Assembly (NCBI GenBank): GCA_963728605.1
Contig: CAVSKS010000008.1
Span: 43,329 to 107,328 of the forward strand
DNA length: 64,000 nt
Direction of reading: 5' to 3'
Source of the DNA: an uncultured Chloroflexia bacterium
GTDB lineage: Bacteria; Chloroflexota; Limnocylindria; Limnocylindrales; CSP1-4
Shown: piece after piece, positions 29,370 through 62,513 of the stretch
Layout of the letters: each line of letters begins with the position of its first letter
How positions within the stretch are numbered: position 1 is the stretch's first letter
Program-made: the position numbers and the translations under genes
Notes under the pieces: generated by a model
Told to the model about the DNA's origin: nothing
Database searches by the model: none
Seen by the model: the letters and a program-made list of their open reading frames with translations, nothing else

Positions 29370-29476
29370 GGCCCAAGTGAACCCCCTGGACCCGGCTTGC
29401 GCCGTTCAGCGCAGGCCGATCGCCATGTCTGTCGGCTTGCAGAGCAGCCGCCCCAGTGGACCTACACTCGCCGCAA

Positions 29477-42969: not shown

Positions 42970-43953
42970 TCAGTTCACGACCGTGTTGGTCGTGGCGGTC
43001 TTGGCGGCGTTGTACACGTCGGTCGTGTCCTCGTTGAACTTGGGACCGTGCATCGCCCGGACGCCGGAGTAGCCGTACGAGTTGAGCGAACTCAGCTGGC
43101 CCACCCCGCTGCTCTCGGTGAAGGTGCGCAGCCACGGCCCGCCGGACGAGCCGCCGGTCATGTCGCACGTCATGCCCCAGGTGAGGTCGTCGTTGTACGG
43201 GTCCTCGAAGATGTTGCCGGCGCAGTACGTCAGGTTGTTGCCCTTGTACTTGCCCGCTGCCGGATAGCCAAAGGCGTAGCGCTTCTCGCCGTTGCTCCCC
43301 GCGGTCGTCACGTCGTACGCCCCGGCGGCGGCGTCGAGCTGGGTGCCCTTGGTCCCGGTCCCGACGACGGCAAAGGCGAAGTCATGGACCGTGGCCTGGG
43401 TGTTGAAGCCACCGGCGGTGGCATAGCCGTTGTGCACGGTCAGCGCCGACGCGGTCCAGCAGCCGAACGGTGAACCGCCACAGACGCTGGGCGGGCTGCC
43501 CGAAAGGCCGTCGTACTGCGGGACGAACATCCAGTTCGTAGCGAACCGCCGGGCAACCTCGTCGTAGGCGCAGTGGCCGGCGGTCAGCACGAGCGACCGC
43601 CCGTTGGTGGTGCTGCCGTCGGTCGCGACGGCTCCGGAGCAGACCCAGTTCGAGCCGGCCATCGAGAAGAAGACCTTGCCGACGGTCCGATAGACCTGGC
43701 CCTGGCCGTTCGGCCAGGCGGCGCCGGCGACCGACCCACCGCCGCTCGGCGGCCTTGCGAACGGACGGAACTCGCCATTCGAGTCGCGGACGAAGTCGCG
43801 CGGCGTGGCCGACGCAATTCGCTGGGCTGTCCAGTAAGCCACGACGCGCTCATGGTCGGAGCGCGCTCCCGTCCCGGCCAGGGCCGGGGCGGCAGCGGGC
43901 AACGCCGCGAGCAGGAGGATGAGGCCGAGGGCAAGCGACGGACGCTTATGCAT
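42970..43953 (-). CDS. secreted trypsin-like serine protease (S1 family), paralog 2
   Basis: LTAGHC, DFAFAVV and GGSSGGPW. Colinear similarity to the neighbouring gene. ATG 43953. Confidence 0.75.
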   Translation of the reverse strand: MHKRPSLALGLILLLAALPAAAPALAGTGARSDHERVVAYWTAQRIASATPRDFVRDSNGEFRPFARPPSGGGSVAGAAWPNGQGQVYRTVGKVFFSMAGSNWVCSGAVATDGSTTNGRSLVLTAGHCAYDEVARRFATNWMFVPQYDGLSGSPPSVCGGSPFGCWTASALTVHNGYATAGGFNTQATVHDFAFAVVGTGTKGTQLDAAAGAYDVTTAGSNGEKRYAFGYPAAGKYKGNNLTYCAGNIFEDPYNDDLTWGMTCDMTGGSSGGPWLRTFTESSGVGQLSSLNSYGYSGVRAMHGPKFNEDTTDVYNAAKTATTNTVVN

Positions 43954-50538: not shown

Positions 50539-51822
50539 TCAGGGGAAAGCGAGCCGTTGCCAACTCGCGAAATCGGCCCGACCGAATCCGGGTACGTCCG
50601 GTATCGCGAAGCTCGTCATCGGCGTGATGCCGAGCGGATCGAGGATCGCGACGATCGGTTGACCGCCACCATTGCGCCCGTCGACGGCTAGCACGTGTCG
50701 GGCGTCGGGTGACCAATGTGGGGAGAACCAGTCGCCTTCTTCGCTGATGTGGTCGGCGTTCGAGCCGTCCGCACGGGCGACCATCACCTGCGTCACGTCG
50801 CCCGGTTCCTGGCTCAGCCAAGCGATGGAGAGACCATCGGGCGACCAGGTTGGCGCGAAGTCGCTCCCTCGGGTGTTGACGATGCGGACCTCCCGTTGAC
50901 CATCGAGTCCGACAGTCCACAGATACTGCCCTTCGTCGTTCGGGCCGGCGCTGTACATGATCGTGGTCCCATCTGGCGACCATTCCATGCTGTCAAAGCC
51001 CGGAACGGCGTCATGCGTGACGCGTCGCTCCCCCGTGCCGTCGGTCCCGATGACGTGGATCCCGATGGAGGCCTGCCATCCCTTCATGAACGCGATGGTT
51101 GTCCGGTCAGGCGACAGGATCGGGGACCAGTTGTTCCGCCGGTCGGTCGTGAGTTGGCGGCGGGACGAGCCATCGGTCGCCGCAAGAAATACCTGGTCGA
51201 AGTCGCTGACCTTCCGTGAATACACCACCCACTTACTGTCGGCCGACCAACTGATGGGACTGGGGCTCTCGACGTCGGCGTCGAGGACGATCGCGTTGCT
51301 GCCGTCGGCGTTCGCAATGACGATGTCGCCCCAGTCCTGCCATTGCGGCCTGGAGTCCACGGCTGACAGACGCTTGAACGCGATCCTCGTGCCATCTGGC
51401 GAGAACGCCGGAAACCCGTCGATCCGTTGATCGGACGTCAACCGAGCGCGGTTGGAGCCGTCCGGATTGGCGGTCCAGATGTCGCCGTCGGCGATGAAGG
51501 CCACCAGGCCCGGCTCGGCGAGTCCGAATGGCGGTGGCAGGCGGCGCTGCGACCCAACGATGACGATCGCCACGGCGAGGGCGAGCAGCAACCCGAGGAT
51601 GATCAGGATCGGAGCCAGGCGCTGACCCGTCTCGAACCGCCACGGGCGCGGCCCGGGAAGCCACCGCTCGGGGAGCAGCCAGCCCGGCACCGGACGGGCC
51701 CGGCGCGTGCGCGACAGCGCCCCCTCGAGCACCTGGTCCGCCGCCGGGCCATGGGCGCGCTCGTCGAGCCAGGTCACCATGAGCTGGTCGAGGGCGGCGT
51801 CGGCGAGCCGTTCGCGGGTCAT
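50539..51822 (-). CDS. single-pass membrane protein with periplasmic TolB-like PD40 beta-propeller, putative anti-sigma partner
   Basis: Its ATG overlaps the ECF sigma stop (ATGA at 51819-51822). One TM helix, then repeated SPDG/WSPD PD40 motifs. Confidence 0.65.
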   Translation of the reverse strand: MTRERLADAALDQLMVTWLDERAHGPAADQVLEGALSRTRRARPVPGWLLPERWLPGPRPWRFETGQRLAPILIILGLLLALAVAIVIVGSQRRLPPPFGLAEPGLVAFIADGDIWTANPDGSNRARLTSDQRIDGFPAFSPDGTRIAFKRLSAVDSRPQWQDWGDIVIANADGSNAIVLDADVESPSPISWSADSKWVVYSRKVSDFDQVFLAATDGSSRRQLTTDRRNNWSPILSPDRTTIAFMKGWQASIGIHVIGTDGTGERRVTHDAVPGFDSMEWSPDGTTIMYSAGPNDEGQYLWTVGLDGQREVRIVNTRGSDFAPTWSPDGLSIAWLSQEPGDVTQVMVARADGSNADHISEEGDWFSPHWSPDARHVLAVDGRNGGGQPIVAILDPLGITPMTSFAIPDVPGFGRADFASWQRLAFP

Positions 51823-52373
51823 GCTGTCCGCCCTTCGCCGGCAGGCGTGGTGCGTGCGTCGGCTTCGAGGGCCGCGCGCATCTGTTGCATCGCCCGATGG
51901 AGCCGCGACCGGACGGTACCGGTCGGCCAGCCGAGGACGTCGGCCGCCTCCTCCGGGCGAAGACCCGCGTAGTAGTACAGGACGATCACCGCCCGGTGGT
52001 TGACGTCCAGTTGCCGGAAGCCGCGATCGAGCTGGTCCCGATCGAGGAGCCGACCGGTCTCGTCGGGTTCGGGTGCATCGAAGAGGGGGAGATGCAGCTC
52101 GCGGCTGCCCCGGGAGCGAACCTTCCGTGCCTCGCGATGGCACTCGTTGATGAGCAGTCGATGCAGCCAGGCATCGAAACGGTCGGGATCGCGCAGTCCC
52201 CGAATGTGCCGCCACGCGGCGACAAGGGCCTCCTGGGTGGCATCCTCCGCCGCCGGTTCATCGTGGAGGATCAACCGAGCAATCACCAGGAGACGACCGA
52301 CCGAGACGCGCGCCAGTTCGCTGAACGCGTCGTGATCGCCGCTCATCGCCCGCTCCACGAGATCCCGTTGCAT
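51819..52373 (-). CDS. ECF (group 4) RNA polymerase sigma factor
   Basis: Region 2 (DATQEALVAAW, FDAWLHRLLINE) and region 4 (EAADVLGWPTGTVRSRLHRA). Confidence 0.85.
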   Translation of the reverse strand: MQRDLVERAMSGDHDAFSELARVSVGRLLVIARLILHDEPAAEDATQEALVAAWRHIRGLRDPDRFDAWLHRLLINECHREARKVRSRGSRELHLPLFDAPEPDETGRLLDRDQLDRGFRQLDVNHRAVIVLYYYAGLRPEEAADVLGWPTGTVRSRLHRAMQQMRAALEADARTTPAGEGRTA

Positions 52374-52510
52374 CGGGCCTCCGGGGTGCGCGACCGATCT
52401 GGTCGTGCTACAGCCTATGAGTGGGACCGCGGGCTGGCTATCTCCCGAATCGCTCGCCGCAACGGCTACCCAGGCTGGCGAATACCCCCGAGGGGTATTG
52501 ACAAGGGGGG

Positions 52511-52539
52511 TTGTCAAGCGGGCCGAATTGCGGTAGAAT
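52511..52539 (+). promoter_or_regulatory. candidate promoter TTGTCA-N17-TAGAAT for the extra sigma-70 gene
   Basis: Hexamers and the 17-nt spacer read directly. The same architecture occurs at 58750-58778. Confidence 0.5.
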
Positions 52540-52550
52540 TCAGGTCCGAT

Positions 52551-52573
52551 GGCGTGTCAAGACTTGACACGCC
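52551..52573. promoter_or_regulatory. perfect palindrome GGCGTGTCAAG-A-CTTGACACGCC (copy 1)
   Basis: 11-bp arms and a 1-nt centre, starting 12 nt after the -10. An identical 23-mer occurs at 58791-58813. Confidence 0.8.
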
Positions 52574-52716
52574 TCATGTCATGTCCGGGTCACGAGGCGG
52601 GAGACCCGGGCGGCGCCAGGCGGTCCCGGCGGGGGACGCCAGGCGGGATGGAGACCGCGAGAACCGGTCTGGTCCGTTTGGGCCGCATCGGACGAGAACG
52701 CGCTGCGGAGTTGCTT

Positions 52717-54363
52717 GTGATCGATAACGAACTGACTGTCAAGACCACCCGACGGCATCGGACCGATGCGGGTCGGAAGAGCGCGGCCGCCGTGCTGGAG
52801 CCGGAGATCGCGGTCGAAGCGGTCGAGCTGCTGGCTGCCGAGGTAGGCCTGCCGGCCGACGCCGTCCCGGTGATGGATCTTCCAGCCGAGGCGCCGGACG
52901 TCATCGACCCCGCGGATGTCGACGAGCCGACGACCGCGGAGCTCGAGGAGGCGGAAGAGGTCACGCCCGACGAGATCGACATCGACGATCCCGTTCGGAT
53001 GTACCTGCGCGAGATCGCGCGCGTGCCGCTGCTGACCGCCGAGGAGGAGGTCGTCCTCGCCAAGGGGATCGAGCTCGGCGAGCAGATGGTCGTCGCCCCG
53101 TGGAAGGCGATCGTTTCGCTTCACGAGTGGACGCTCCACGAGACCGAGTCCAAGACCCGTTCGCTCAAGCCGCAGTACCGGCTGCCGTTCGGCGACGAGT
53201 CGCACCGGATGCTCCGCGCCGCACTCGCCGACGACGGCGCGCTGGACCTGCTGGTCACCGCGCCGGCCTTCGGCTTCGCCGCCGCGGCCAAGGAAGCGCC
53301 CAGCGACCACGTCAAGGAGCTGATCGGCGAGGCCCGCAACCTGCGGGCGATCTACAACGAGCGGCTCGACGTGGACGCCTTCGTCAACCTGCTCGATCGG
53401 GCGTACCTGGCCGTTCATAACGGCGACCTCGAGTGTCGCGACAACCCGGCCCTCCGGGCGCTCTACGACTGGACGCGCGACGCCGTCGCGTACCCGGCCC
53501 TCGAGCGCTGGATTGGTGCCGGCCACGATGCCGGCCTGCTGGCCGACATGGGCTACGACCCGGACGCCGTCGGGACCAGGAAGCCGCTCAACCAGCCGGG
53601 CGAGGTCACCCGCCTCGGCCGGCAGGCCAAGGACCACCTGACCAGCGCGAACCTGCGGCTGGTGGTCTCGATCGCCAAGAAGTACCCGAACCGCGGCATG
53701 AGCATCCTGGACCTGATCCAGGAGGGCAACGCCGGGCTGATCCGTGCGGTCGAGAAGTTCGAGTACGAGCGAGGCTTCAAGTTCTCGACGTACGCGACGT
53801 GGTGGATCCGCCAGGCGATCACCCGGGCCATGGCCGACCAGAGCCGGACGATCCGGATCCCGGTCCACATGGTCGAGACGATCAACCGGATGATCCGGAC
53901 CACCCGAGAGCTCCAGGGCCGGCTCGGTCGACAGCCGACGGTCGAGGAGGTCGCCGCGGTGATGTCCGAGACATCGGAGGTCGTGGTCACCCCGGACAAG
54001 GTCCGCGAGATGATCAAGATCCGCCGCGAGCCGATCTCCCTCGAGACCCCGATCGGGGAAGAGGAGGACTCGGCGCTGGGTGACCTCATCGAGGACACCG
54101 ACGCGGTGGCCCCCCTCGAGGCTGCCACGCAGCAGCTCCTCAAGGAGCAGGTCGATGCCGTGCTCGAGTCGCTGAGCGGTCGCGAGCGGCGCGTCCTCGA
54201 GCTCCGGTTCGGGCTCGCGGATGGTCGCGCCCGGACCCTCGAGGAAGTCGGCCGCGACTTCGGGGTGACCCGCGAGCGGGTCCGCCAGATCGAGGCGATC
54301 GCGCTGCGCAAGCTGCGCCACCCGTCCCGGAGTCGCAAGCTCCGCGAGTACATGCTCGACTGA
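52717..54363 (+). CDS. group-1-like sigma-70 factor (extra RpoD paralog) with a large insertion between regions 1.2 and 2
   Basis: [46 protein letters not shown] and [23 protein letters not shown] 52717 lies 6 nt after GGAG. In-frame ATGs at 52648 and 52549 are alternatives. Confidence 0.85.
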
Positions 54364-54426: not shown

Positions 54427-54617
54427 CTTGCGCCCACGGCAAGTAAGCGAGCCCCCGATGCGTCGGGACGGCCGCTCGAGGCCGGAATCCTCGCCGGAGG
54501 GCGCCCTCCGTTGCGCGAAGCGCAAGGAAATTCAGCCCTGGGCGGTTTGGGCTCCCACGCTTGCACCCGTCGCAAGCTCAGCGTCGGTGGGGCTTCGGTA
54601 CTTGCACCAGCCGCAAG
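54427..54617. repeat. array A of four (C)TTGC-N7-GCAA(G) hairpin/palindrome units
   Basis: Units at 54427-54443, 54511-54525, 54559-54577 and 54601-54617, read directly. Confidence 0.75.
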
Positions 54618-54642
54618 GTGCGAGACGCCGGAACGCGAACTC

Positions 54643-55020
54643 TCAGGCCGGCTCGAGGATCAGGAAGTCGTTCACCTGGATCACCCCCAGGACCAGCCGG
54701 ACGATCCACGGGACGAGCTGGCGCGACGGATCGTGGAGCCGTTCCGGCGCGGTCAGGCGAACGTGGCGCCGCATCGTCTCGATCTCGCAGCCGCCGGCGG
54801 CCAGGACGTTCTTGACCCATTCCGCGTCAGGGCCGTAGGTCAGCGCCACCACGTACCGACCGTCGCGGCGGAAGATGTTGATCGGCGTCCGCCGGACGGT
54901 CCCGGACCGCCGGCCGACATGGGTCACGATTGCGAACCACGGCAGCCAGCCCGCCACGTGGCGGAGGATCGGGTTCGTGAAGCGGAGATTGATGGCCGCC
55001 ACGAAGCGAGGAATTGGCAT
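54643..55020 (-). CDS. DUF385 / deazaflavin-dependent nitroreductase-family protein
   Basis: HVGRRSGTVRRTPINIFRRDGRYVVALTYGPDAEWVKNVLAAGGCEIE is the characteristic family pattern. ATG 55020. Confidence 0.7.
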   Translation of the reverse strand: MPIPRFVAAINLRFTNPILRHVAGWLPWFAIVTHVGRRSGTVRRTPINIFRRDGRYVVALTYGPDAEWVKNVLAAGGCEIETMRRHVRLTAPERLHDPSRQLVPWIVRLVLGVIQVNDFLILEPA

Positions 55021-55101
55021 CGGTTCGAGTCTACGCGCCGTGAACCACGCGGTACGATGCGCGCCGGCGGCGATTTCTTGAAGCGCGAGAGGGGAGCGGG
55101 C

Positions 55102-57060
55102 GTGGCCCAGACGTCGGGCGGCGCGGAACGGGAGCGGTCGGCGAACGCCACGTTCGCCTGGATCGCCACGGCCCTTGCCGCGTGGGTCGTGATCGGCGTC
55201 TTCCTCGTCGTCCGGGCGCTCAACCTCGGGCTGACCGAGGACGTGGCCGTCTCGCCGTATCACATCGTCGGGTACGCCGCGCTCGCGGCCGTCCTGCTGT
55301 TCTCGATCGGCCTCGTGATCCTCGCCGTCCGTCGGGGGCGGTCTTGGCGCGAGGCGTTCCCGACGGGCTACGGGGTGATGGGCATTGGTGTCCTGGCAGC
55401 CGTGGCCTACATCGTCCTCGACGGGATCTGGCAGAGCGTGGCCGGGATCGGCATCGGGATCGAAGGCGGCTTTGCCCCGACGCGATTGCTCCTGCTGGCG
55501 GCGGTCGCACTGATCGCGGTTGGGCCGCTTCGGGCGGCCCTCCGCGCGGCCACCGCGGGCGGCCCCGTGCACCGCTGGCCGGCCGTGATCGCCGCCGGCC
55601 TCGTTCTGGCGATGGTCGCCAGTCCGGGCGGCTTCCACCCGGCCGTCAGTCCATGGCTCGAGGAGCCCGACGACACCATCGAAGACGACGGCGAGATCTG
55701 GGTCATGAATGCCGATGGGACGAACCAGACCCGGCTGATCGAGGCGCCCGGCAATGAGATCCACGCCGTGGCTCCCGCCTGGTCGCCGGACGGCACCCAG
55801 ATCGCGTGGACCCGCTGGACGCCGAACCAGACCGGTCGGGACTTCAATGCCGACGTCTGGATCGCCGCGACCGACGGCAGCGGCGCCCGGCCCCTCGCGG
55901 AGGGCGCCGAGTGGCAGTGGATCCCGCACTGGTCGCCCGATGGTGTCTGGATCTCGTACACCGTCGAGCCCGACCCCAGCCTCCAAATCGGCGATCCGGG
56001 CGGTCCGCGCCCGGGCGGTCCCATCGCGCCGAACGACCAGGGCTTTGCCATCGGCCCGGCTCCGTTGGTCACGGGCGGCACCGGCGCGGACCTGTGGCGC
56101 GTCCGGGCCGACGGCACGGGCGAACCAGAACGGCTGACCGAAGTCGCGGGCGACGATCGGGCAGGGGATTACTCGCCGGACGGTAGCCAGATCACGTTCG
56201 ATGCCACCCGCGACGGCAACACGGAGATCTACGTGATCGATGCCGACGGCGCGAACCCGCGCCGCCTGACGGACGACGGCGGCGAGGACTGGGCGCCCGA
56301 CTGGTCCCCGGACGCCAGCCGGATCGCGTTCAACTCCGACCGCAACGGCAACGACGACATCTTCGTGATGGCCGCCGACGGGTCGGGCCTGGTCCAGGTG
56401 ACCAATGACCCGATGGACGAGCGTGGAGCGAGCTGGTCGCCGGACGGCCAGACGATCGCCTATGCCGCGTGGCCCGACATCGAGCCCGAGATCTACGCGA
56501 TCGACGTCGACGGGACCAACCCGCGGAACCTCACCCGCAGTCCCGGCACGTGGGATGGCGAGTGGGACGCGGGCGACTGGACGCCCGACGGGCGGTTGGC
56601 GTTCGCCCGGGGCGGCCACTGGCCAACGTTCGCCCAGCCGCTCGTCCGTGAAGATCTGGGCCTCGCGACGCTGCTCATCCAGGCGGCCCTCGTCGCGTTC
56701 ATGTGTCTCCTGCTGCTCCGAATCGGGCCGCCGTTCGGTGCCTTCACGGTGCTCCTGGGGCTATCCACGGTCCTCGCCGCGAGTGGCCTGGACGACTACC
56801 GGTTTGCGATCGCCGCCGCCCTCGCCGGCCTGATCCTCGATCTCCTGGTACCCAGGTTCCCGGCCCGCTCCCGACCGGCGGTCGTTGGGGCGGGCAGTGC
56901 CGCCCTGTTCGTGCTCTCGGTCATCGTGACCGTCCTGTTCACGAGCGGCCTCGTCTGGCGACCCACCCTCGCCTTCGGCGCGGTCCTCGCGGCCGCGGCG
57001 ATCGGCTGGGGGCTGACGCTGCTCAGCGGACCATCCCAACGTACCCCCCAGGGGTCTTGA
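55102..57060 (+). CDS. membrane protein with a PD40 (TolB-like) beta-propeller between N- and C-terminal TM bundles
   Basis: GTG 55102 lies 5 nt after GGGGAG. ATG 55057 is the alternative. Several N-terminal TM helices, repeated WSPDG PD40 units, then several C-terminal TM helices. Confidence 0.7.
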   Translation: MAQTSGGAERERSANATFAWIATALAAWVVIGVFLVVRALNLGLTEDVAVSPYHIVGYAALAAVLLFSIGLVILAVRRGRSWREAFPTGYGVMGIGVLAAVAYIVLDGIWQSVAGIGIGIEGGFAPTRLLLLAAVALIAVGPLRAALRAATAGGPVHRWPAVIAAGLVLAMVASPGGFHPAVSPWLEEPDDTIEDDGEIWVMNADGTNQTRLIEAPGNEIHAVAPAWSPDGTQIAWTRWTPNQTGRDFNADVWIAATDGSGARPLAEGAEWQWIPHWSPDGVWISYTVEPDPSLQIGDPGGPRPGGPIAPNDQGFAIGPAPLVTGGTGADLWRVRADGTGEPERLTEVAGDDRAGDYSPDGSQITFDATRDGNTEIYVIDADGANPRRLTDDGGEDWAPDWSPDASRIAFNSDRNGNDDIFVMAADGSGLVQVTNDPMDERGASWSPDGQTIAYAAWPDIEPEIYAIDVDGTNPRNLTRSPGTWDGEWDAGDWTPDGRLAFARGGHWPTFAQPLVREDLGLATLLIQAALVAFMCLLLLRIGPPFGAFTVLLGLSTVLAASGLDDYRFAIAAALAGLILDLLVPRFPARSRPAVVGAGSAALFVLSVIVTVLFTSGLVWRPTLAFGAVLAAAAIGWGLTLLSGPSQRTPQGS

Positions 57061-57168: not shown

Positions 57169-58527
57169 TCAGCGCATCAGCCGGTAGAGATGCCAGCGGT
57201 CGGGAACGCCCTTCAACTCGCGCTCGCCAGCATCCTCGAAGGTGATGCCAGAACCCGAAACGAGGTCCCTGACCGTTTGGGAAACCAGAACTTCGGACGG
57301 GGCCGCGAGCGCTGCGATCCTCGCGCCGACGTTAACCGCGTTTCCTCCGACCTTGCCAGCGATCCTCTCGACCTCACCGGTGTGCACCCCCGCGCGCACC
57401 TCCAGTCCGAAGTCTCGGACCGCGTCGCCGATAGCCTGTGCGCACCGGACGGCACGCGCCGGACCGTCAAAGGTGGCGAAGAATCCATCCCCAGCCGTGT
57501 CCACCTCGATCCCTCGAAAGCGGCCGAGGAGGGCTCGGACTGCACGGTGATGGCGATCGACGAGATTGCCCCAGCCGCGATCGCCAAGCTCAGCGGCCTT
57601 AGCCGTCGACCCGACGATGTCGGTGAACATCACGGTCGCTAGTACGCGGTCGAGGTCCGCCTCTTGGTGGCCGACCTCCGCAACGAACCGCTCGATCTCG
57701 CCCAGCAGCTCGTCCTGGTTCCCCGACCAGTAGAAGTGATCGACGCCGTGGAACGAGACGAAGCGTGCGCCGTGGATCTGATCCGCCATCCAGCTCGTTT
57801 CCTCGGCGGTGAAGAGCAGGTCGCCGTCGCGGGCGAGGAGAAGTGTAGGGACGTGGACCGCCGGCAACGCCGGGCGGACATCGATCCCGCGGTTCATCCG
57901 CTCGAGCGCGATCGCAGCTCCCGGGCTCGCGGCGTGACGAAGATAGTCCGCGAGCCAACGGATCGTATGGTCATCGTTCGCGAGCGTGGGCGCGCCCCAG
58001 TCTCGCAACTCTTGCGCCGCGAACTCCCGCGTGCCCCACATTCGCTCGATGCTCTCGACGTAGCGCTCGTGCTCATCGTCGGTGGCCACCGGGAACGGGT
58101 AGTCAATCGTCGGTCTCCAGCATGCGCTGGTCCCGAAAAGCACAAGCGCGATGGTCCGCTCCGGATAGGTCGCGGCGAACAGCGTCGCCATCGGACCACC
58201 TTCCGAGAAGCCCAGCACGACGGCGCGTTCGGAGCCGACCGCGTCCATGACAGCCCTCGCGTCATCCATCCGGACCTCGAGAGACGGGAGCCGATCATCA
58301 GACACGCGGTCCGAGAGTCCGGTGCCACGCTTGTCGAAGAGGATCAACCGTGAGAACGCTGCCAACCGGGAGAGGAATCGTGCAAGCGTTGGCTCCTTCC
58401 ACATCAGCTCGATGTGGGTAGTCCATGCCATCACGAAGACCAAATCGACTGGAGCATCGCCCACGGTCTGGTACGCGATGTGAACGCCATCGACGGTCTT
58501 CGCGTAGTTGGTCTCGGGAACCTCCAC
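57169..58527 (-). CDS. alpha/beta-hydrolase fused to a class III adenylate/guanylate cyclase (LipJ-like architecture)
   Basis: N-terminal hydrolase fold (VLGFSEGG nucleophile elbow). C-terminal cyclase domain (VMFTDIVGSTAKA, DTAGDGFFATF, GVHTGEV, G.AVNVGARI). Confidence 0.85.
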   Translation of the reverse strand: MEVPETNYAKTVDGVHIAYQTVGDAPVDLVFVMAWTTHIELMWKEPTLARFLSRLAAFSRLILFDKRGTGLSDRVSDDRLPSLEVRMDDARAVMDAVGSERAVVLGFSEGGPMATLFAATYPERTIALVLFGTSACWRPTIDYPFPVATDDEHERYVESIERMWGTREFAAQELRDWGAPTLANDDHTIRWLADYLRHAASPGAAIALERMNRGIDVRPALPAVHVPTLLLARDGDLLFTAEETSWMADQIHGARFVSFHGVDHFYWSGNQDELLGEIERFVAEVGHQEADLDRVLATVMFTDIVGSTAKAAELGDRGWGNLVDRHHRAVRALLGRFRGIEVDTAGDGFFATFDGPARAVRCAQAIGDAVRDFGLEVRAGVHTGEVERIAGKVGGNAVNVGARIAALAAPSEVLVSQTVRDLVSGSGITFEDAGERELKGVPDRWHLYRLMR

Positions 58528-58609: not shown

Positions 58610-58745
58610 ACCCTGCTGCTGACCAATGGCCTGGCCTGGACGGACACCCTCGCCTTCGGCGCGATCCTCGCGGCAGCGGCCATCGGCTGGGGGCTGACGC
58701 TGCTCAGTGGACCATCCCAAAGTACCCCCCAAGGGTCTTGACAAG
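58610..58745 (+). repeat. direct repeat copy 2 (orphan gene-end fragment plus TTGACAA)
   Basis: Translates in the matching frame to TLLLTNGLAWTDTLAFGAILAAAAIGWGLTLLSGPSQSTPQGS-stop. No upstream gene body. Confidence 0.8.
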
Positions 58746-58749
58746 CACC

Positions 58750-58778
58750 TTGTCAAGAGGTTGACACGGGCGTAGTCT
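58750..58778 (+). promoter_or_regulatory. candidate promoter TTGTCA-N17-TAGTCT for dnaG-rpoD
   Basis: Hexamers and spacer read directly. An additional TTGACA lies in the spacer (58761-58766). Confidence 0.5.
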
Positions 58779-58790
58779 TCCGCGCGAGAT

Positions 58791-58813
58791 GGCGTGTCAA
58801 GACTTGACACGCC
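58791..58813. promoter_or_regulatory. perfect palindrome GGCGTGTCAAG-A-CTTGACACGCC (copy 2)
   Basis: Identical to 52551-52573. It starts 13 nt after the -10. Confidence 0.8.
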
Positions 58814-58820
58814 CTCCGTC

Positions 58821-60749
58821 ATGCCCGGCGAGGTGCACTTGGCAGTCGGCGTTGCGGCCGAGGTGAAGAGCCGCTTGAACGTCGTCGACGTGGTCGGCGA
58901 GACGGTCAGCCTCAAGAAGGCGGGGACCACGTTCAAGGGCCTCTGCCCGTTCCACGGCGAGAAGACCCCGTCGTTCGTGGTCACGCCTGCCCGCGAGTCA
59001 TGGCACTGCTTCGGCTGCGGGCTCGGTGGCGACGTCTTCAGCTTCGTGATGCAGCGCGACGGCGTGCCATTCCCTGAGGCGCTTAAGCAGCTGGCCGCCA
59101 AGGCCGGCGTCGAGCTCGACGAGCGGACCCGCCGGGACGACGTCCGGAAGGCCCGCCTGCGCGAGGTCATGGAGGCGGCGATCGCCTTCTACCACGCCGT
59201 CCTTACGGCATCGAAGACGGGACAGGCGGCGCTCGAGTACCTCCGGGGTCGCGGCTTCACCGATGCCACGATTGAGACCTACCAGCTGGGCTGGGCGCCG
59301 GGTGGCTGGGACACGATGAGCCGGCAACTCCTGGAGCGACGCCAGATCCGGCCCGAGGAGCTGGCCGAGGTGGGACTGACCACGGCCCGCCAGGGCGGCC
59401 GGGGCGCGTACGACCGCTTCCGCGAACGGGTCATCTTCCCGATCCGCGACCAGAACGGCAGCCCGACCGGGCTGGGCGGCCGAATCCTGGCCGACGGCCC
59501 GGATCGCGGCCCGAAGTACCTCAACTCGCCGGCAACGCCGCTGTTCGACAAGAGCCGCAGCCTGTACCTGGTCGACAAGGCCAAGGGCCCGATGCGGAAG
59601 ACCGGCCAGGCGGTGATCGTCGAGGGCTACACCGATGCGCTGATGGCCCACCAGGCGGGCTTCGACACCGTCGTCGCCTCGCTGGGGACGGCGCTGACGC
59701 CGGGCCAGGTGGCGCTCCTGACGCGCTACGCCAAGCGCATCGCGCTGGCCTACGACGTGGACCCGGCGGGCGAGAAGGCGGGCACGTTCGGCGTCCAGGC
59801 GCTGGAAGCGCTGATCGGCCAGCTGGCCGTCGCCGACACCGGCATCGAGCTCGACGAGGTCCGTGTCGTGCGGCTGCCCGACGGCAAGGATCCCGACGAG
59901 GTCCTGCGCGACTCGCCGGATCGCTGGCGGGAAGAGGTCCGGACGGCGGAGCCGATCGTCGACTACCTCATCGACTTCCAGGCTCGCCAGGTCGATCTCA
60001 AGACGCCGGGTGGCAAGTCCCGGTTCGTGGACGCGATCCTGCCAACCGTCCGGGCCGTGCCCAATCCCGTGATGCGTGACGCCTACCTGGCACGGATCCG
60101 GCAGGTCAGCGGGGTGGAGGAGCGGACGCTCATCGAGATGCTCCACCGGCCGGCCCGTCACGGCGCCGACGCCGGACGGATCACCGCCGAATCGGTCACC
60201 GCCTCGCCGGATGCGCTGCCGATCGGCGAGATCCTGCGCTCGATCACCCGGACCGAACGGGACCTCCTGCGGCTGATGCTCCTCCGCCCCGACCAGCAGG
60301 TCCGGATCGCCGACGAGCTCGGGCCCGATCAGCTCCCCTCGACTGTCGCCCGGGAGGTCTACCGGACGATCGCCATCCAGCGGGCCTCGAACGACGAGGG
60401 CGTCCATCCGCCGTTCGACGCGACCGCACTCCTGGCGGCCCTCGACGACGAGACCGCGGCGCTCGTCCGGGCCCTGTACGCCCTCGACGGACCGAGTCCG
60501 CGGGACCTCGACCAGGGCGACGTGGATTACGTCATCGACAACCTGCTCCTCGATCTCGAGGAGGACCGGCTGTCTCATCGGACCGAGTTCACCCAGGACG
60601 CACTCGGCGAGGCGGAACGGGATGGCGACCGGCCATCGATCGACCGCCTGCTGCTGGAGCTCCGACAGCTCAACGAATCGCGCCGGTCGCTCGACCGGCG
60701 CCGCGACCAGACCCGCTACCTGACCCGACAGCTCGCGGGGCGCGCATGA
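58821..60749 (+). CDS. dnaG: DNA primase
   Basis: Zinc-ribbon CPFHGEKTPSF...CFGCG and TOPRIM VIVEGYTD / DPD motifs. ATG 58821 lacks a good SD. TTG 58839 (after GAGG) is the alternative. Confidence 0.9.
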   Translation: MPGEVHLAVGVAAEVKSRLNVVDVVGETVSLKKAGTTFKGLCPFHGEKTPSFVVTPARESWHCFGCGLGGDVFSFVMQRDGVPFPEALKQLAAKAGVELDERTRRDDVRKARLREVMEAAIAFYHAVLTASKTGQAALEYLRGRGFTDATIETYQLGWAPGGWDTMSRQLLERRQIRPEELAEVGLTTARQGGRGAYDRFRERVIFPIRDQNGSPTGLGGRILADGPDRGPKYLNSPATPLFDKSRSLYLVDKAKGPMRKTGQAVIVEGYTDALMAHQAGFDTVVASLGTALTPGQVALLTRYAKRIALAYDVDPAGEKAGTFGVQALEALIGQLAVADTGIELDEVRVVRLPDGKDPDEVLRDSPDRWREEVRTAEPIVDYLIDFQARQVDLKTPGGKSRFVDAILPTVRAVPNPVMRDAYLARIRQVSGVEERTLIEMLHRPARHGADAGRITAESVTASPDALPIGEILRSITRTERDLLRLMLLRPDQQVRIADELGPDQLPSTVAREVYRTIAIQRASNDEGVHPPFDATALLAALDDETAALVRALYALDGPSPRDLDQGDVDYVIDNLLLDLEEDRLSHRTEFTQDALGEAERDGDRPSIDRLLLELRQLNESRRSLDRRRDQTRYLTRQLAGRA

Positions 60750-60788: not shown

Positions 60789-62513
<1,725 letters not shown>

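Follow-up and report, generated by a model that had tools for sequence, protein, structure and literature searches.

A conserved palindromic leader module upstream of dnaG-rpoD and of a sigma-70 paralog in Limnocylindria

Among the regulatory elements described in bacteria, the controlling inverted repeat of chaperone expression (CIRCE) serves as an operator and is itself transcribed; as a hairpin, it has been reported to affect mRNA half-life. The HspR-associated inverted repeat (HAIR) has the operator consensus CTTGAGT-N7-ACTCAAG, and in the rpsU-dnaG-rpoD operon of Escherichia coli the translation of the primase gene dnaG is kept low. Outside a few model species, the way in which the level of the housekeeping sigma factor is set is poorly understood. 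Here we describe an element that can be compared with each of these systems, found in a 64,000-nt stretch of DNA (the window; positions 43,329 to 107,328 of contig CAVSKS010000008.1, assembly GCA_963728605.1) from an uncultured bacterium of the Limnocylindria, a lineage of Chloroflexota that is abundant in soils and lakes and of which, to our knowledge, no member has been cultured. The window carries two copies of a module built around the 23-nt perfect palindrome GGCGTGTCAAGACTTGACACGCC, one in front of dnaG-rpoD (copy B) and the other, identical over all 23 nt, in front of a sigma-70 paralog (copy A). Our preferred reading, which is tentative and to which we assign a probability of roughly 0.45, is that the module is a dual-level, CIRCE-like element that would act as a DNA operator at about +5 to +20 and, once transcribed, as a hairpin at the 5' end of the mRNA.

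The module is present in more than 190 related genomes. An exact scan with CGTGTCAAGNCTTGACACG of the genomes of 185,579 species, one genome per species, returned at least 118 loci, and among the matches listed almost all belong to Limnocylindria or to unclassified Chloroflexota metagenome-assembled genomes. The sites among these matches, oriented by the flanking gene, have dnaG (80) or a sigma-70 gene (36) immediately downstream in 116 of 121 cases, the other five being four sites at locus edges and one AT-rich chance match. A less biased set is provided by 80 dnaG loci picked by protein similarity alone, with DnaG identities of 51-85%: the hairpin lies 29-200 nt upstream of dnaG in 79 of them, including four loop-length variants (L122, L141, L193, and L196) and one copy broken by Ns; a single distant relative (L194) lacks it. 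The preliminary description of the window, made from its sequence alone, had raised the question of whether relatives with the dnaG-rpoD region lack the motif; all but one of these 80 have it. In 1.28 Mb of collected Limnocylindria DNA, 212 of 218 core matches adjoin dnaG or a sigma gene, the residue comprising four locus-edge sites, one extra upstream copy (L056), and one AT-rich chance match, and a covariance-model search found nothing else of substance. As an outgroup control we used a further scan, guided by the sigma paralog, which returned mostly distant phyla. Its 78 sigma-70 loci from other phyla and other Chloroflexota (among them Herpetosiphon and Aggregatilineales) all lack the core, and its two loci of the Limnocylindria type carry it.

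The hairpin and a downstream motif, RUGYCCGG, are kept at a fixed spacing upstream of both gene classes in well over 100 species, which bears out one of the two alternatives of the preliminary description, namely that the module is constrained as one unit. Judged by this distribution, the palindrome is not a local duplication; the module occurs nearly Limnocylindria-wide before the two main sigma-factor units. The feature common to both units is a principal-type sigma factor, the dnaG-then-sigma order is kept in relatives, and the module probably controls the amount of the principal sigma factor. In several relatives the sigma-paralog and dnaG-rpoD units, each with its module, lie 2-6 kb apart, as they do in the window (module positions 795/2808 in L198, 2027/3884 in L028, and 5694/7636 in L052; L017 and L040 are on one contig), and in L198 the two module-bearing units are directly adjacent. 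One locus filed as viral (L197, IMGVR_UViG_3300009549_000150) is an ordinary Limnocylindria-type dnaG-rpoD locus with the module. We rejected a phage connection, this single IMG/VR match being merely a dnaG-rpoD locus, and its viral label may reflect misclassification or a prophage-adjacent host region.

Within the window, the two copies can be aligned from the TAC-C-tract element upstream of the promoter through GTCATG(C/T)CCGG downstream of the palindrome. The preliminary description had taken copy B, at the dnaG-rpoD promoter, for a repeat occurrence of the module seen in copy A, which the identical 23-mer and the alignable flanks bear out, and each of the elements it listed was found in place when the sequence was re-read. 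With up to 3 mismatches allowed, the palindrome has only these two sites in 64 kb and none in 100 dinucleotide-preserving shuffles. A 49-nt covariance model (R1), built from the modules of relatives, scores the two copies at 58.1 and 55.8 bits on the + strand and at about 30 bits on the minus strand, so that sense exceeds antisense by about 27 bits, and the palindrome hairpin (P1) is present in every predicted minimum free energy and centroid structure. A dispersed repeat of the repetitive extragenic palindrome or miniature inverted-repeat transposable element type was considered and rejected, given two copies in the 64 kb and the adjacency of all informative copies in the 1.28 Mb to dnaG or sigma-70 genes. 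The next best match to the model in the window (18.4 bits, 29388-29437, +) is located between a divergent Ser/Thr kinase gene and a pyridine-nucleotide-disulfide oxidoreductase gene; its hairpin, GGCUUGCGC-CGUUCA-GCGCAGGCC, has the same GGCU...GGCC base and is followed 6 nt later by CAUGUCUG. It was rejected as a third copy, having the base and a CAUGUC tail without the core and scoring at noise level against a search of 1.4 Mb (both strands) of 100 loci, and is probably a chance match.

The geometry of the module is rigid. In the set of 171 non-redundant leaders, 147/160 have a gap of 10-12 nt between the -10 hexamer and the hairpin, which places the hairpin a predicted 3-6 nt or so after the transcription start, and 125/160 have 9 nt between the hairpin and the G of GTCCGG. 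In the protein-chosen dnaG set, every cell of the 10-bp helix (740 of 740) holds a standard pair. The pair at positions 4/20 takes four forms (GC 23, UG 23, CG 14, and UA 14), and pairs 2 and 3 show rarer double changes, so that three pairs in total have changed on both sides; the covariation score was not reached in any of 500 shuffles. Where the wobble form occurs, T invariably occupies the 5' arm and G the 3' arm, never the reverse, a combination that pairs in the sense transcript only. Even within one genome, the dnaG and sigma copies can have different pair types (L133 versus L005; L165 versus L038), which indicates a structural requirement rather than a base read by a shared factor. The central loop base, read in the orientation of the gene, is A in 140, T in 17, and G in 14 leaders, a strand bias unlike that of a symmetric duplex DNA site, and the loop-length variants keep the stem. 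Covariation of the basal pairs, including the sense-only U·G form, thus points to selection at the RNA level, on a hairpin close to the 5' end of the transcript. The basal pairs are maintained by compensatory change, as generally expected of a structured RNA, and the apical pairs are invariant and therefore uninformative in this regard. Two alternative structures were rejected: a hairpin between the 3' arm and the downstream UGUC, which on inspection has only 4 bp and no covariation with position 20, and a GAC/GUC loop-to-tail pseudoknot, for which no covariation with the loop base was seen.

The apical part of the palindrome tells a different story. The 15-nt core TGTCAAG-N-CTTGACA is unvarying, apart from variants at its center, across DnaG identities of 51-85%, and the seven apical positions of each arm are invariant and without covariation. 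Watson-Crick pairs that never covary are not predicted by RNA structure alone. Moreover, the core recurs at places outside this leader: at eight loci of one subclade, extra copies with non-pairing flanks lie 129-160 nt upstream of the leader copy, beyond the promoter, and in a second subclade of nine loci (L002, L014, L023, L029, L050, L051, L088, L137, and L183) the variant TGTCAAG-GC-CTTGACA, 44 nt upstream of the leader hairpin, overlaps the -35 hexamer and the spacer. The core itself amounts to two -35-type hexamers, and the promoter is made of the same CTTGWCAAG units. The invariance of the core, together with its extra copies in and upstream of promoters, suggests that it is recognized as DNA.

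The predicted promoters in front of the palindromes are of the sigma-70 type (Table 1). In relatives the -35 is TTGTCA in 61 and TTGACA in 59, with a spacer of 17-18 nt, and the position of the inverted repeat of copy B is occupied by TTGACAA-N5-TTG(T/A)CAAG, inverted or direct. The TTGTCA-N17-TAGTCT promoter proposed earlier for copy B (58750-58778) is present as sequence, but its TAGTCT has only 3/6 matches and is rejected by a simple consensus scan that accepts the TAGAAT of copy A; in the closest relatives the -10 at this position reads TAGTCT, TAACCT, or TAATCT. The further TTGACA within its spacer (58761-58766), previously described as an extra half-site, does complete a looser palindrome with the -35 and belongs to the type seen in the second subclade above, but this arrangement recurs in one group of relatives and not in the closest ones. 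Further upstream, a TAC-N9-GTA element lies beside or over the -35 in 119/171 related promoters, in many cases between TGTCAA and TTGACA, which gives a 27-bp composite palindrome. We rejected the possibility that either TTGACA of the core is the -35 of a second promoter, no -10 being present at 15-18 nt on either strand. No terminator-like site or U-run follows the hairpin at either copy, the tail having the form CCNNNNNNRUGUCCGG.

The leader motif bears directly on the start of dnaG. Its RUG is ATG or GTG in about 90% of relatives and occasionally ACG, GCG, or AGG, and relative to dnaG it is out of frame in 68, in frame but followed by a stop before dnaG in 7, and in an open frame in 18, the last share being about that expected by chance. 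In the closest relatives, L040 and L052, dnaG is not in frame with the corresponding AUGUCCGGC. The N-terminus that is conserved in DnaG, (M)AVG[VI]AAEVK, begins at a TTG or GTG after GGAGG, and in 116 relatives the predicted start is TTG in 86 and is preceded by a Shine-Dalgarno sequence in 109. From the frame statistics and this conserved N-terminus with its Shine-Dalgarno sequence, dnaG of the window most likely starts at TTG 58839, and ATG 58821 is most likely part of the leader motif. The suggestion that the module was duplicated together with the first codons of dnaG is thus at odds with relatives in which the RUG is mostly out of frame (68) or stopped (7) rather than open (18). In one lineage (for example, L130, L142-L144, L146, and L156), ACG or ATC occupies the aligned start position after a good GGAGG; the TTG, ACG, and ATC starts suggest deliberately weak or non-canonical initiation of the primase. 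In the start-codon analysis, the distance from hairpin to start codon varied from 29 to 170 nt in relatives, and no conserved pairing of the motif with the ribosome-binding site was found among them. Pairing of RUGUCCGG with the Shine-Dalgarno region was also rejected in terms of energy (-7.5 kcal/mol versus -6.7 to -6.8 in shuffled sequences), with no conserved helix in short leaders. Given the variable distance and the lack of such pairing, the idea that a hairpin about 8 nt from the start gates dnaG translation is unlikely, whereas an effect of the leader on mRNA stability is plausible.

The RNA data that could be brought to bear are Logan contigs of metatranscriptomes, and none of the runs found came from the source organism. 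A contig of 151 nt with a sequence identical to that of the window begins exactly at 58789. The ends of other RNA contigs fall within the conserved hairpin, perhaps through an effect of assembly; as contig ends often coincide with the hairpin and the runs conflict, we rejected such ends as support for the transcription start. In the soil metatranscriptome run X29, a contig with the dnaG leader and 5' coding region of a relative (58839-58955 on the window) has a word depth of about 187, far above that of neighboring contigs, which hints at a high abundance of this mRNA segment.

These observations can be combined in the following scheme for the dual-level element. One copy of the module would serve dnaG-rpoD and the other the sigma-70 paralog, the whole amounting to a class-wide regulation of principal sigma units. 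Transcription would begin at a sigma-70-type promoter with CTTGWCAAG units, usually supplemented by TAC-N9-GTA, and its start is predicted to lie a few nucleotides before the palindrome. In duplex form the core TGTCAAG-N-CTTGACA would be the operator of a sequence-specific DNA-binding factor not encoded nearby, and the bound factor would limit initiation or escape at both sigma operons. In the RNA form, the core and the four freely covarying pairs would form a stable 5'-terminal stem-loop on the mRNA, which, together with RUGUCCGG, would most likely set mRNA stability or processing rather than occlude the ribosome-binding site. Several points weigh against this scheme. The insertions of 1-3 nt at the center of the palindrome are awkward for a dimeric DNA-binding protein, and no candidate regulator was found; upstream synteny is not conserved (the largest cluster comprises 9/156 loci). 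On the RNA side, most of the covariation comes from a single base pair, in sequences that are related by descent. In two other RNA runs, relatives are represented by contigs that reach 37 and 138 nt upstream of the hairpin, which could be due to residual DNA, read-through, or another promoter. Finally, the strand-biased central base and the directional RUGUCCGG could mean that all of the constraint is on the RNA.

If so, the 5'-terminal hairpin and RUGUCCGG would form a single composite mRNA signal, with a factor contacting the apical stem and loop; this factor might be an autogenous or global RNA-binding protein, and related versions invoke a hairpin-stabilized promoter-proximal pause or protection from RNase J/E-type decay. 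Such a signal would account for the basal covariation with its sense-only U·G, the strand-biased loop base, the tolerance of loop-size variants, the closeness of the stem-loop to the predicted 5' end, a few nucleotides away, the directional, fixed-spaced downstream motif, and the difference between sense and antisense scores, and the conserved YG dinucleotides 9-13 nt after the stem would suit a pause. It leaves unaccounted for the extra core copies upstream of or inside promoters with non-pairing flanks, and six or seven Watson-Crick apical pairs that never covary class-wide would be unusual for RNA recognition. Pausing and decay, for their part, do not explain the sequence invariance, and conserved signals for pausing or termination, whether -10-like or U-rich, are not seen. 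We therefore regard an exclusively RNA-level signal as rather unlikely, if the closest competitor of the dual-level element. A further proposal dispenses with a dedicated factor altogether: region 4 of sigma, free or in holoenzyme, would bind the core, along with the surplus -35-like hexamers of the promoter, as decoys and hinder productive initiation or escape, thereby creating a negative feedback. It draws on the CTTGWCAAG shared by the core and the promoter units, on the nature of the core as two back-to-back TTGACA hexamers, on the encoding of a group-1/2 sigma-70 as the only trait common to both units, and on the confinement of the element to sigma-encoding units with no regulator gene nearby; the variable spacing of the inverted hexamers (1, 2-4, or 15 nt) also fits recognition by a monomer. 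Yet the described sigma-dependent promoter-proximal effects need a -10-like element, and none is conserved 15-18 nt from either hexamer; on inspection of the sequences, no conserved TAnnnT typical of a sigma-70 pause element occurs there or downstream of the start. The proposal also leaves the invariant G11 and C13, the covariation of the basal pairs, and RUGUCCGG unexplained, and we know of no precedent for self-recognition of such sites by sigma region 4. Self-recognition is accordingly improbable in our estimate; were it true, it would constitute a direct homeostat for the housekeeping sigma factor, with no need of a dedicated repressor.

Two readings that place translation in the leader fare far worse than either of these. 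That of the preliminary description, in which ATG 58821 is the dnaG start, the module was copied with the first codons, and the hairpin gates translation, can appeal to the fact that this ATG is in frame with dnaG in the window, if without a Shine-Dalgarno sequence. It conflicts with the frame distribution and the conserved N-terminus of the relatives described above, and also with the occurrence of the same motif before sigma genes, where the start codon lies some 130-300 nt further on; we consider it highly improbable. We take the same view of a leaderless small open reading frame or upstream open reading frame, encoding MACQDLTR... from ATG 58789/52549 or MSG... from the RUG. An ATG does stand 2 nt before the hairpin in both window copies, the 151-nt RNA contig starts at the first of these positions, and the RUG is usually a potential start codon; but the ATG before the hairpin is not conserved in relatives, and the reading frames opened by the RUG, which may have as few as 4 or more than 90 codons, encode no conserved peptide beyond M-(S/F/P)-G.

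The coordinates of the module, the promoters, and the genes they precede are collected in Table 1. The rpoD-like gene is presumed to be co-transcribed with dnaG. A 452-aa protein with an alpha/beta-hydrolase domain and an adenylate or guanylate cyclase domain is encoded divergently from dnaG (57169-58527, minus). An extracytoplasmic function (ECF) sigma gene (51819-52517, minus) is divergent from the sigma paralog, on both sides of which PD40/beta-propeller proteins are encoded; these neighbors of the paralog, the ECF gene included, lie within 50539-52517 (minus) and 54511-57060 (+). The leader of the sigma paralog, about 170 nt in length, contains three (A/U)GGCGG(A) motifs at 52590-52650. 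In sigma-class leaders of relatives (L005, L057, L058, L098, and others), this motif is found in the loops of consecutive hairpins, with UGUCCGG forming the 5' arm of the first; these repeats could be sites for a second factor.

Table 1. Features of the two module-bearing units in the window
Feature	Position	Strand	Remarks
Perfect TAC-N9-GTA palindrome ATACCCCCGAGGGGTAT, copy A	52482..52498	+	C and G tracts; abuts TTGACA 52498-52503
Promoter TTGTCA-N17-TAGAAT, copy A	52511..52539	+	10/12 matches in promoter scan
P1 hairpin, copy A	52551..52573	+	Identical 23 nt; from folding and covariance model
Leader motif AUGUCCGGG, copy A	52581..52589	+	5' arm of second hairpin P2 (~52584-52611)
Sigma-70 paralog, regions 1.2 to 4	52717..54363	+	Likely start GTG 52717 or TTG 52711, after GGAG
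Degenerate TAC-N9-GTA element, TAC-CCCCCAAGG-GTC, copy B	58723..58737	+	Abuts upstream TTGACA; aligned with copy A
Inverted repeat CTTGACAAG-CAC-CTTGTCAAG, 9 bp	58737..58757	+	First arm is an upstream -35-like hexamer; second contains the -35
-35 TTGTCA, copy B	58750..58755	+	17 nt upstream of TAGTCT
Loose palindrome TGTCAAGAGGTTGACA (TGTCAAG-AG-GTTGACA)	58751..58766	+	-35 plus spacer TTGACA (58761-58766)
-10 TAGTCT, copy B	58773..58778	+	Weak; of key positions keeps only A2 and T6
P1 hairpin, copy B	58791..58813	+	10-bp RNA stem, loop GAC
Invariant core of P1, TGTCAAG-A-CTTGACA	58795..58809	+	Part of the 23-nt palindrome
Leader motif RUGYCCGGS, here AUGCCCGGC, copy B	58821..58829	+	Hairpin end to its G, 9 nt; most likely not the dnaG start
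Shine-Dalgarno GAGG (58830-58833) and likely dnaG start TTG (58839-58841)	58830..58841	+	From starts of relatives
dnaG (primase)	58839..60749	+	Pfam Zn_ribbon_DnaG, DNAG_N, Toprim, DnaB_bind
Sigma-70, rpoD-like, regions 1.2 to 4	60789..62513	+	40 nt downstream of dnaG

Taken together, the module would mark a specific control point over global transcription capacity and primase in Limnocylindria. In practical terms, the 49-nt motif can be used for genome annotation and as a bait for the factor, it offers a case for separating DNA-level from RNA-level selection, and the dnaG start of the window can be corrected, in all likelihood, to TTG 58839. As regards known systems, Rfam release 15 gave 0 matches in the window at the gathering score and only noise in the two leader regions (E >=0.03, with scores far below that threshold), and no match to the palindrome was found in the searchable literature.

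Individual parts of the module do resemble described operators. The type-2 operator of CsoR is a TAC-N9-GTA inverted repeat flanking C and G tracts (PMC3902906). This form is seen at copy A and in the 119 of 171 related promoters, and the likeness is confined to the region upstream of the palindrome; copy B has a degenerate version, TAC-N9-GTC, complementarity between the inner tracts is often lacking, the target genes are unrelated to metal or sulfur stress, and a crude RLxRIxGQ pattern found no CsoR-like open reading frame in the window. The promoter of copy B, CTTGACA-N7-TGTCAAG, has the same 7-7-7 layout and the same CTTGA...TCAAG ends as the HAIR operator of HspR. However, half of the relatives have direct repeats and their spacing is 6-8 nt, which sets them apart from the HAIR/HspR operators, as do the opposite polarity of the leader palindrome, with CAAG facing inward, and the non-chaperone targets. 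The likeness to the E. coli rpsU-dnaG-rpoD operon lies in the co-location of dnaG and rpoD and in the TTG start used by most of the relatives here; there is no rpsU upstream, and the internal terminator, LexA site, heat-shock promoter, and RNA processing of that operon are without counterpart.

At the RNA level, a parallel can be drawn with the 5'-terminal stabilizer stem-loops of the ompA, aprE, and ermC type, since the hairpin is predicted to lie about 3-6 nt from the 5' end, at a tightly conserved distance. Those stem-loops are not conserved in sequence, in contrast to the 15 invariant nucleotides here, where the 5' end is a predicted one. CIRCE, which combines the DNA and RNA levels, differs in sequence (TTAGCACTC-N9-GAGTGCTAA versus TGTCAAG-N-CTTGACA), in the length of the loop (9 nt versus 1-3 nt), and in the downstream genes, which are chaperone operons (groE and dnaK) as opposed to dnaG-rpoD and a sigma paralog, and the fixed RUGUCCGG is found only in the present module; by sequence, loop length, and downstream genes, then, the element falls outside the CIRCE/HrcA system. 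The two nevertheless have in common a perfect, conserved inverted repeat that is placed between promoter and start codon and is restricted, lineage-wide, to very few operons. On this comparison, the module appears to be a previously undescribed motif that represents a familiar type of element.

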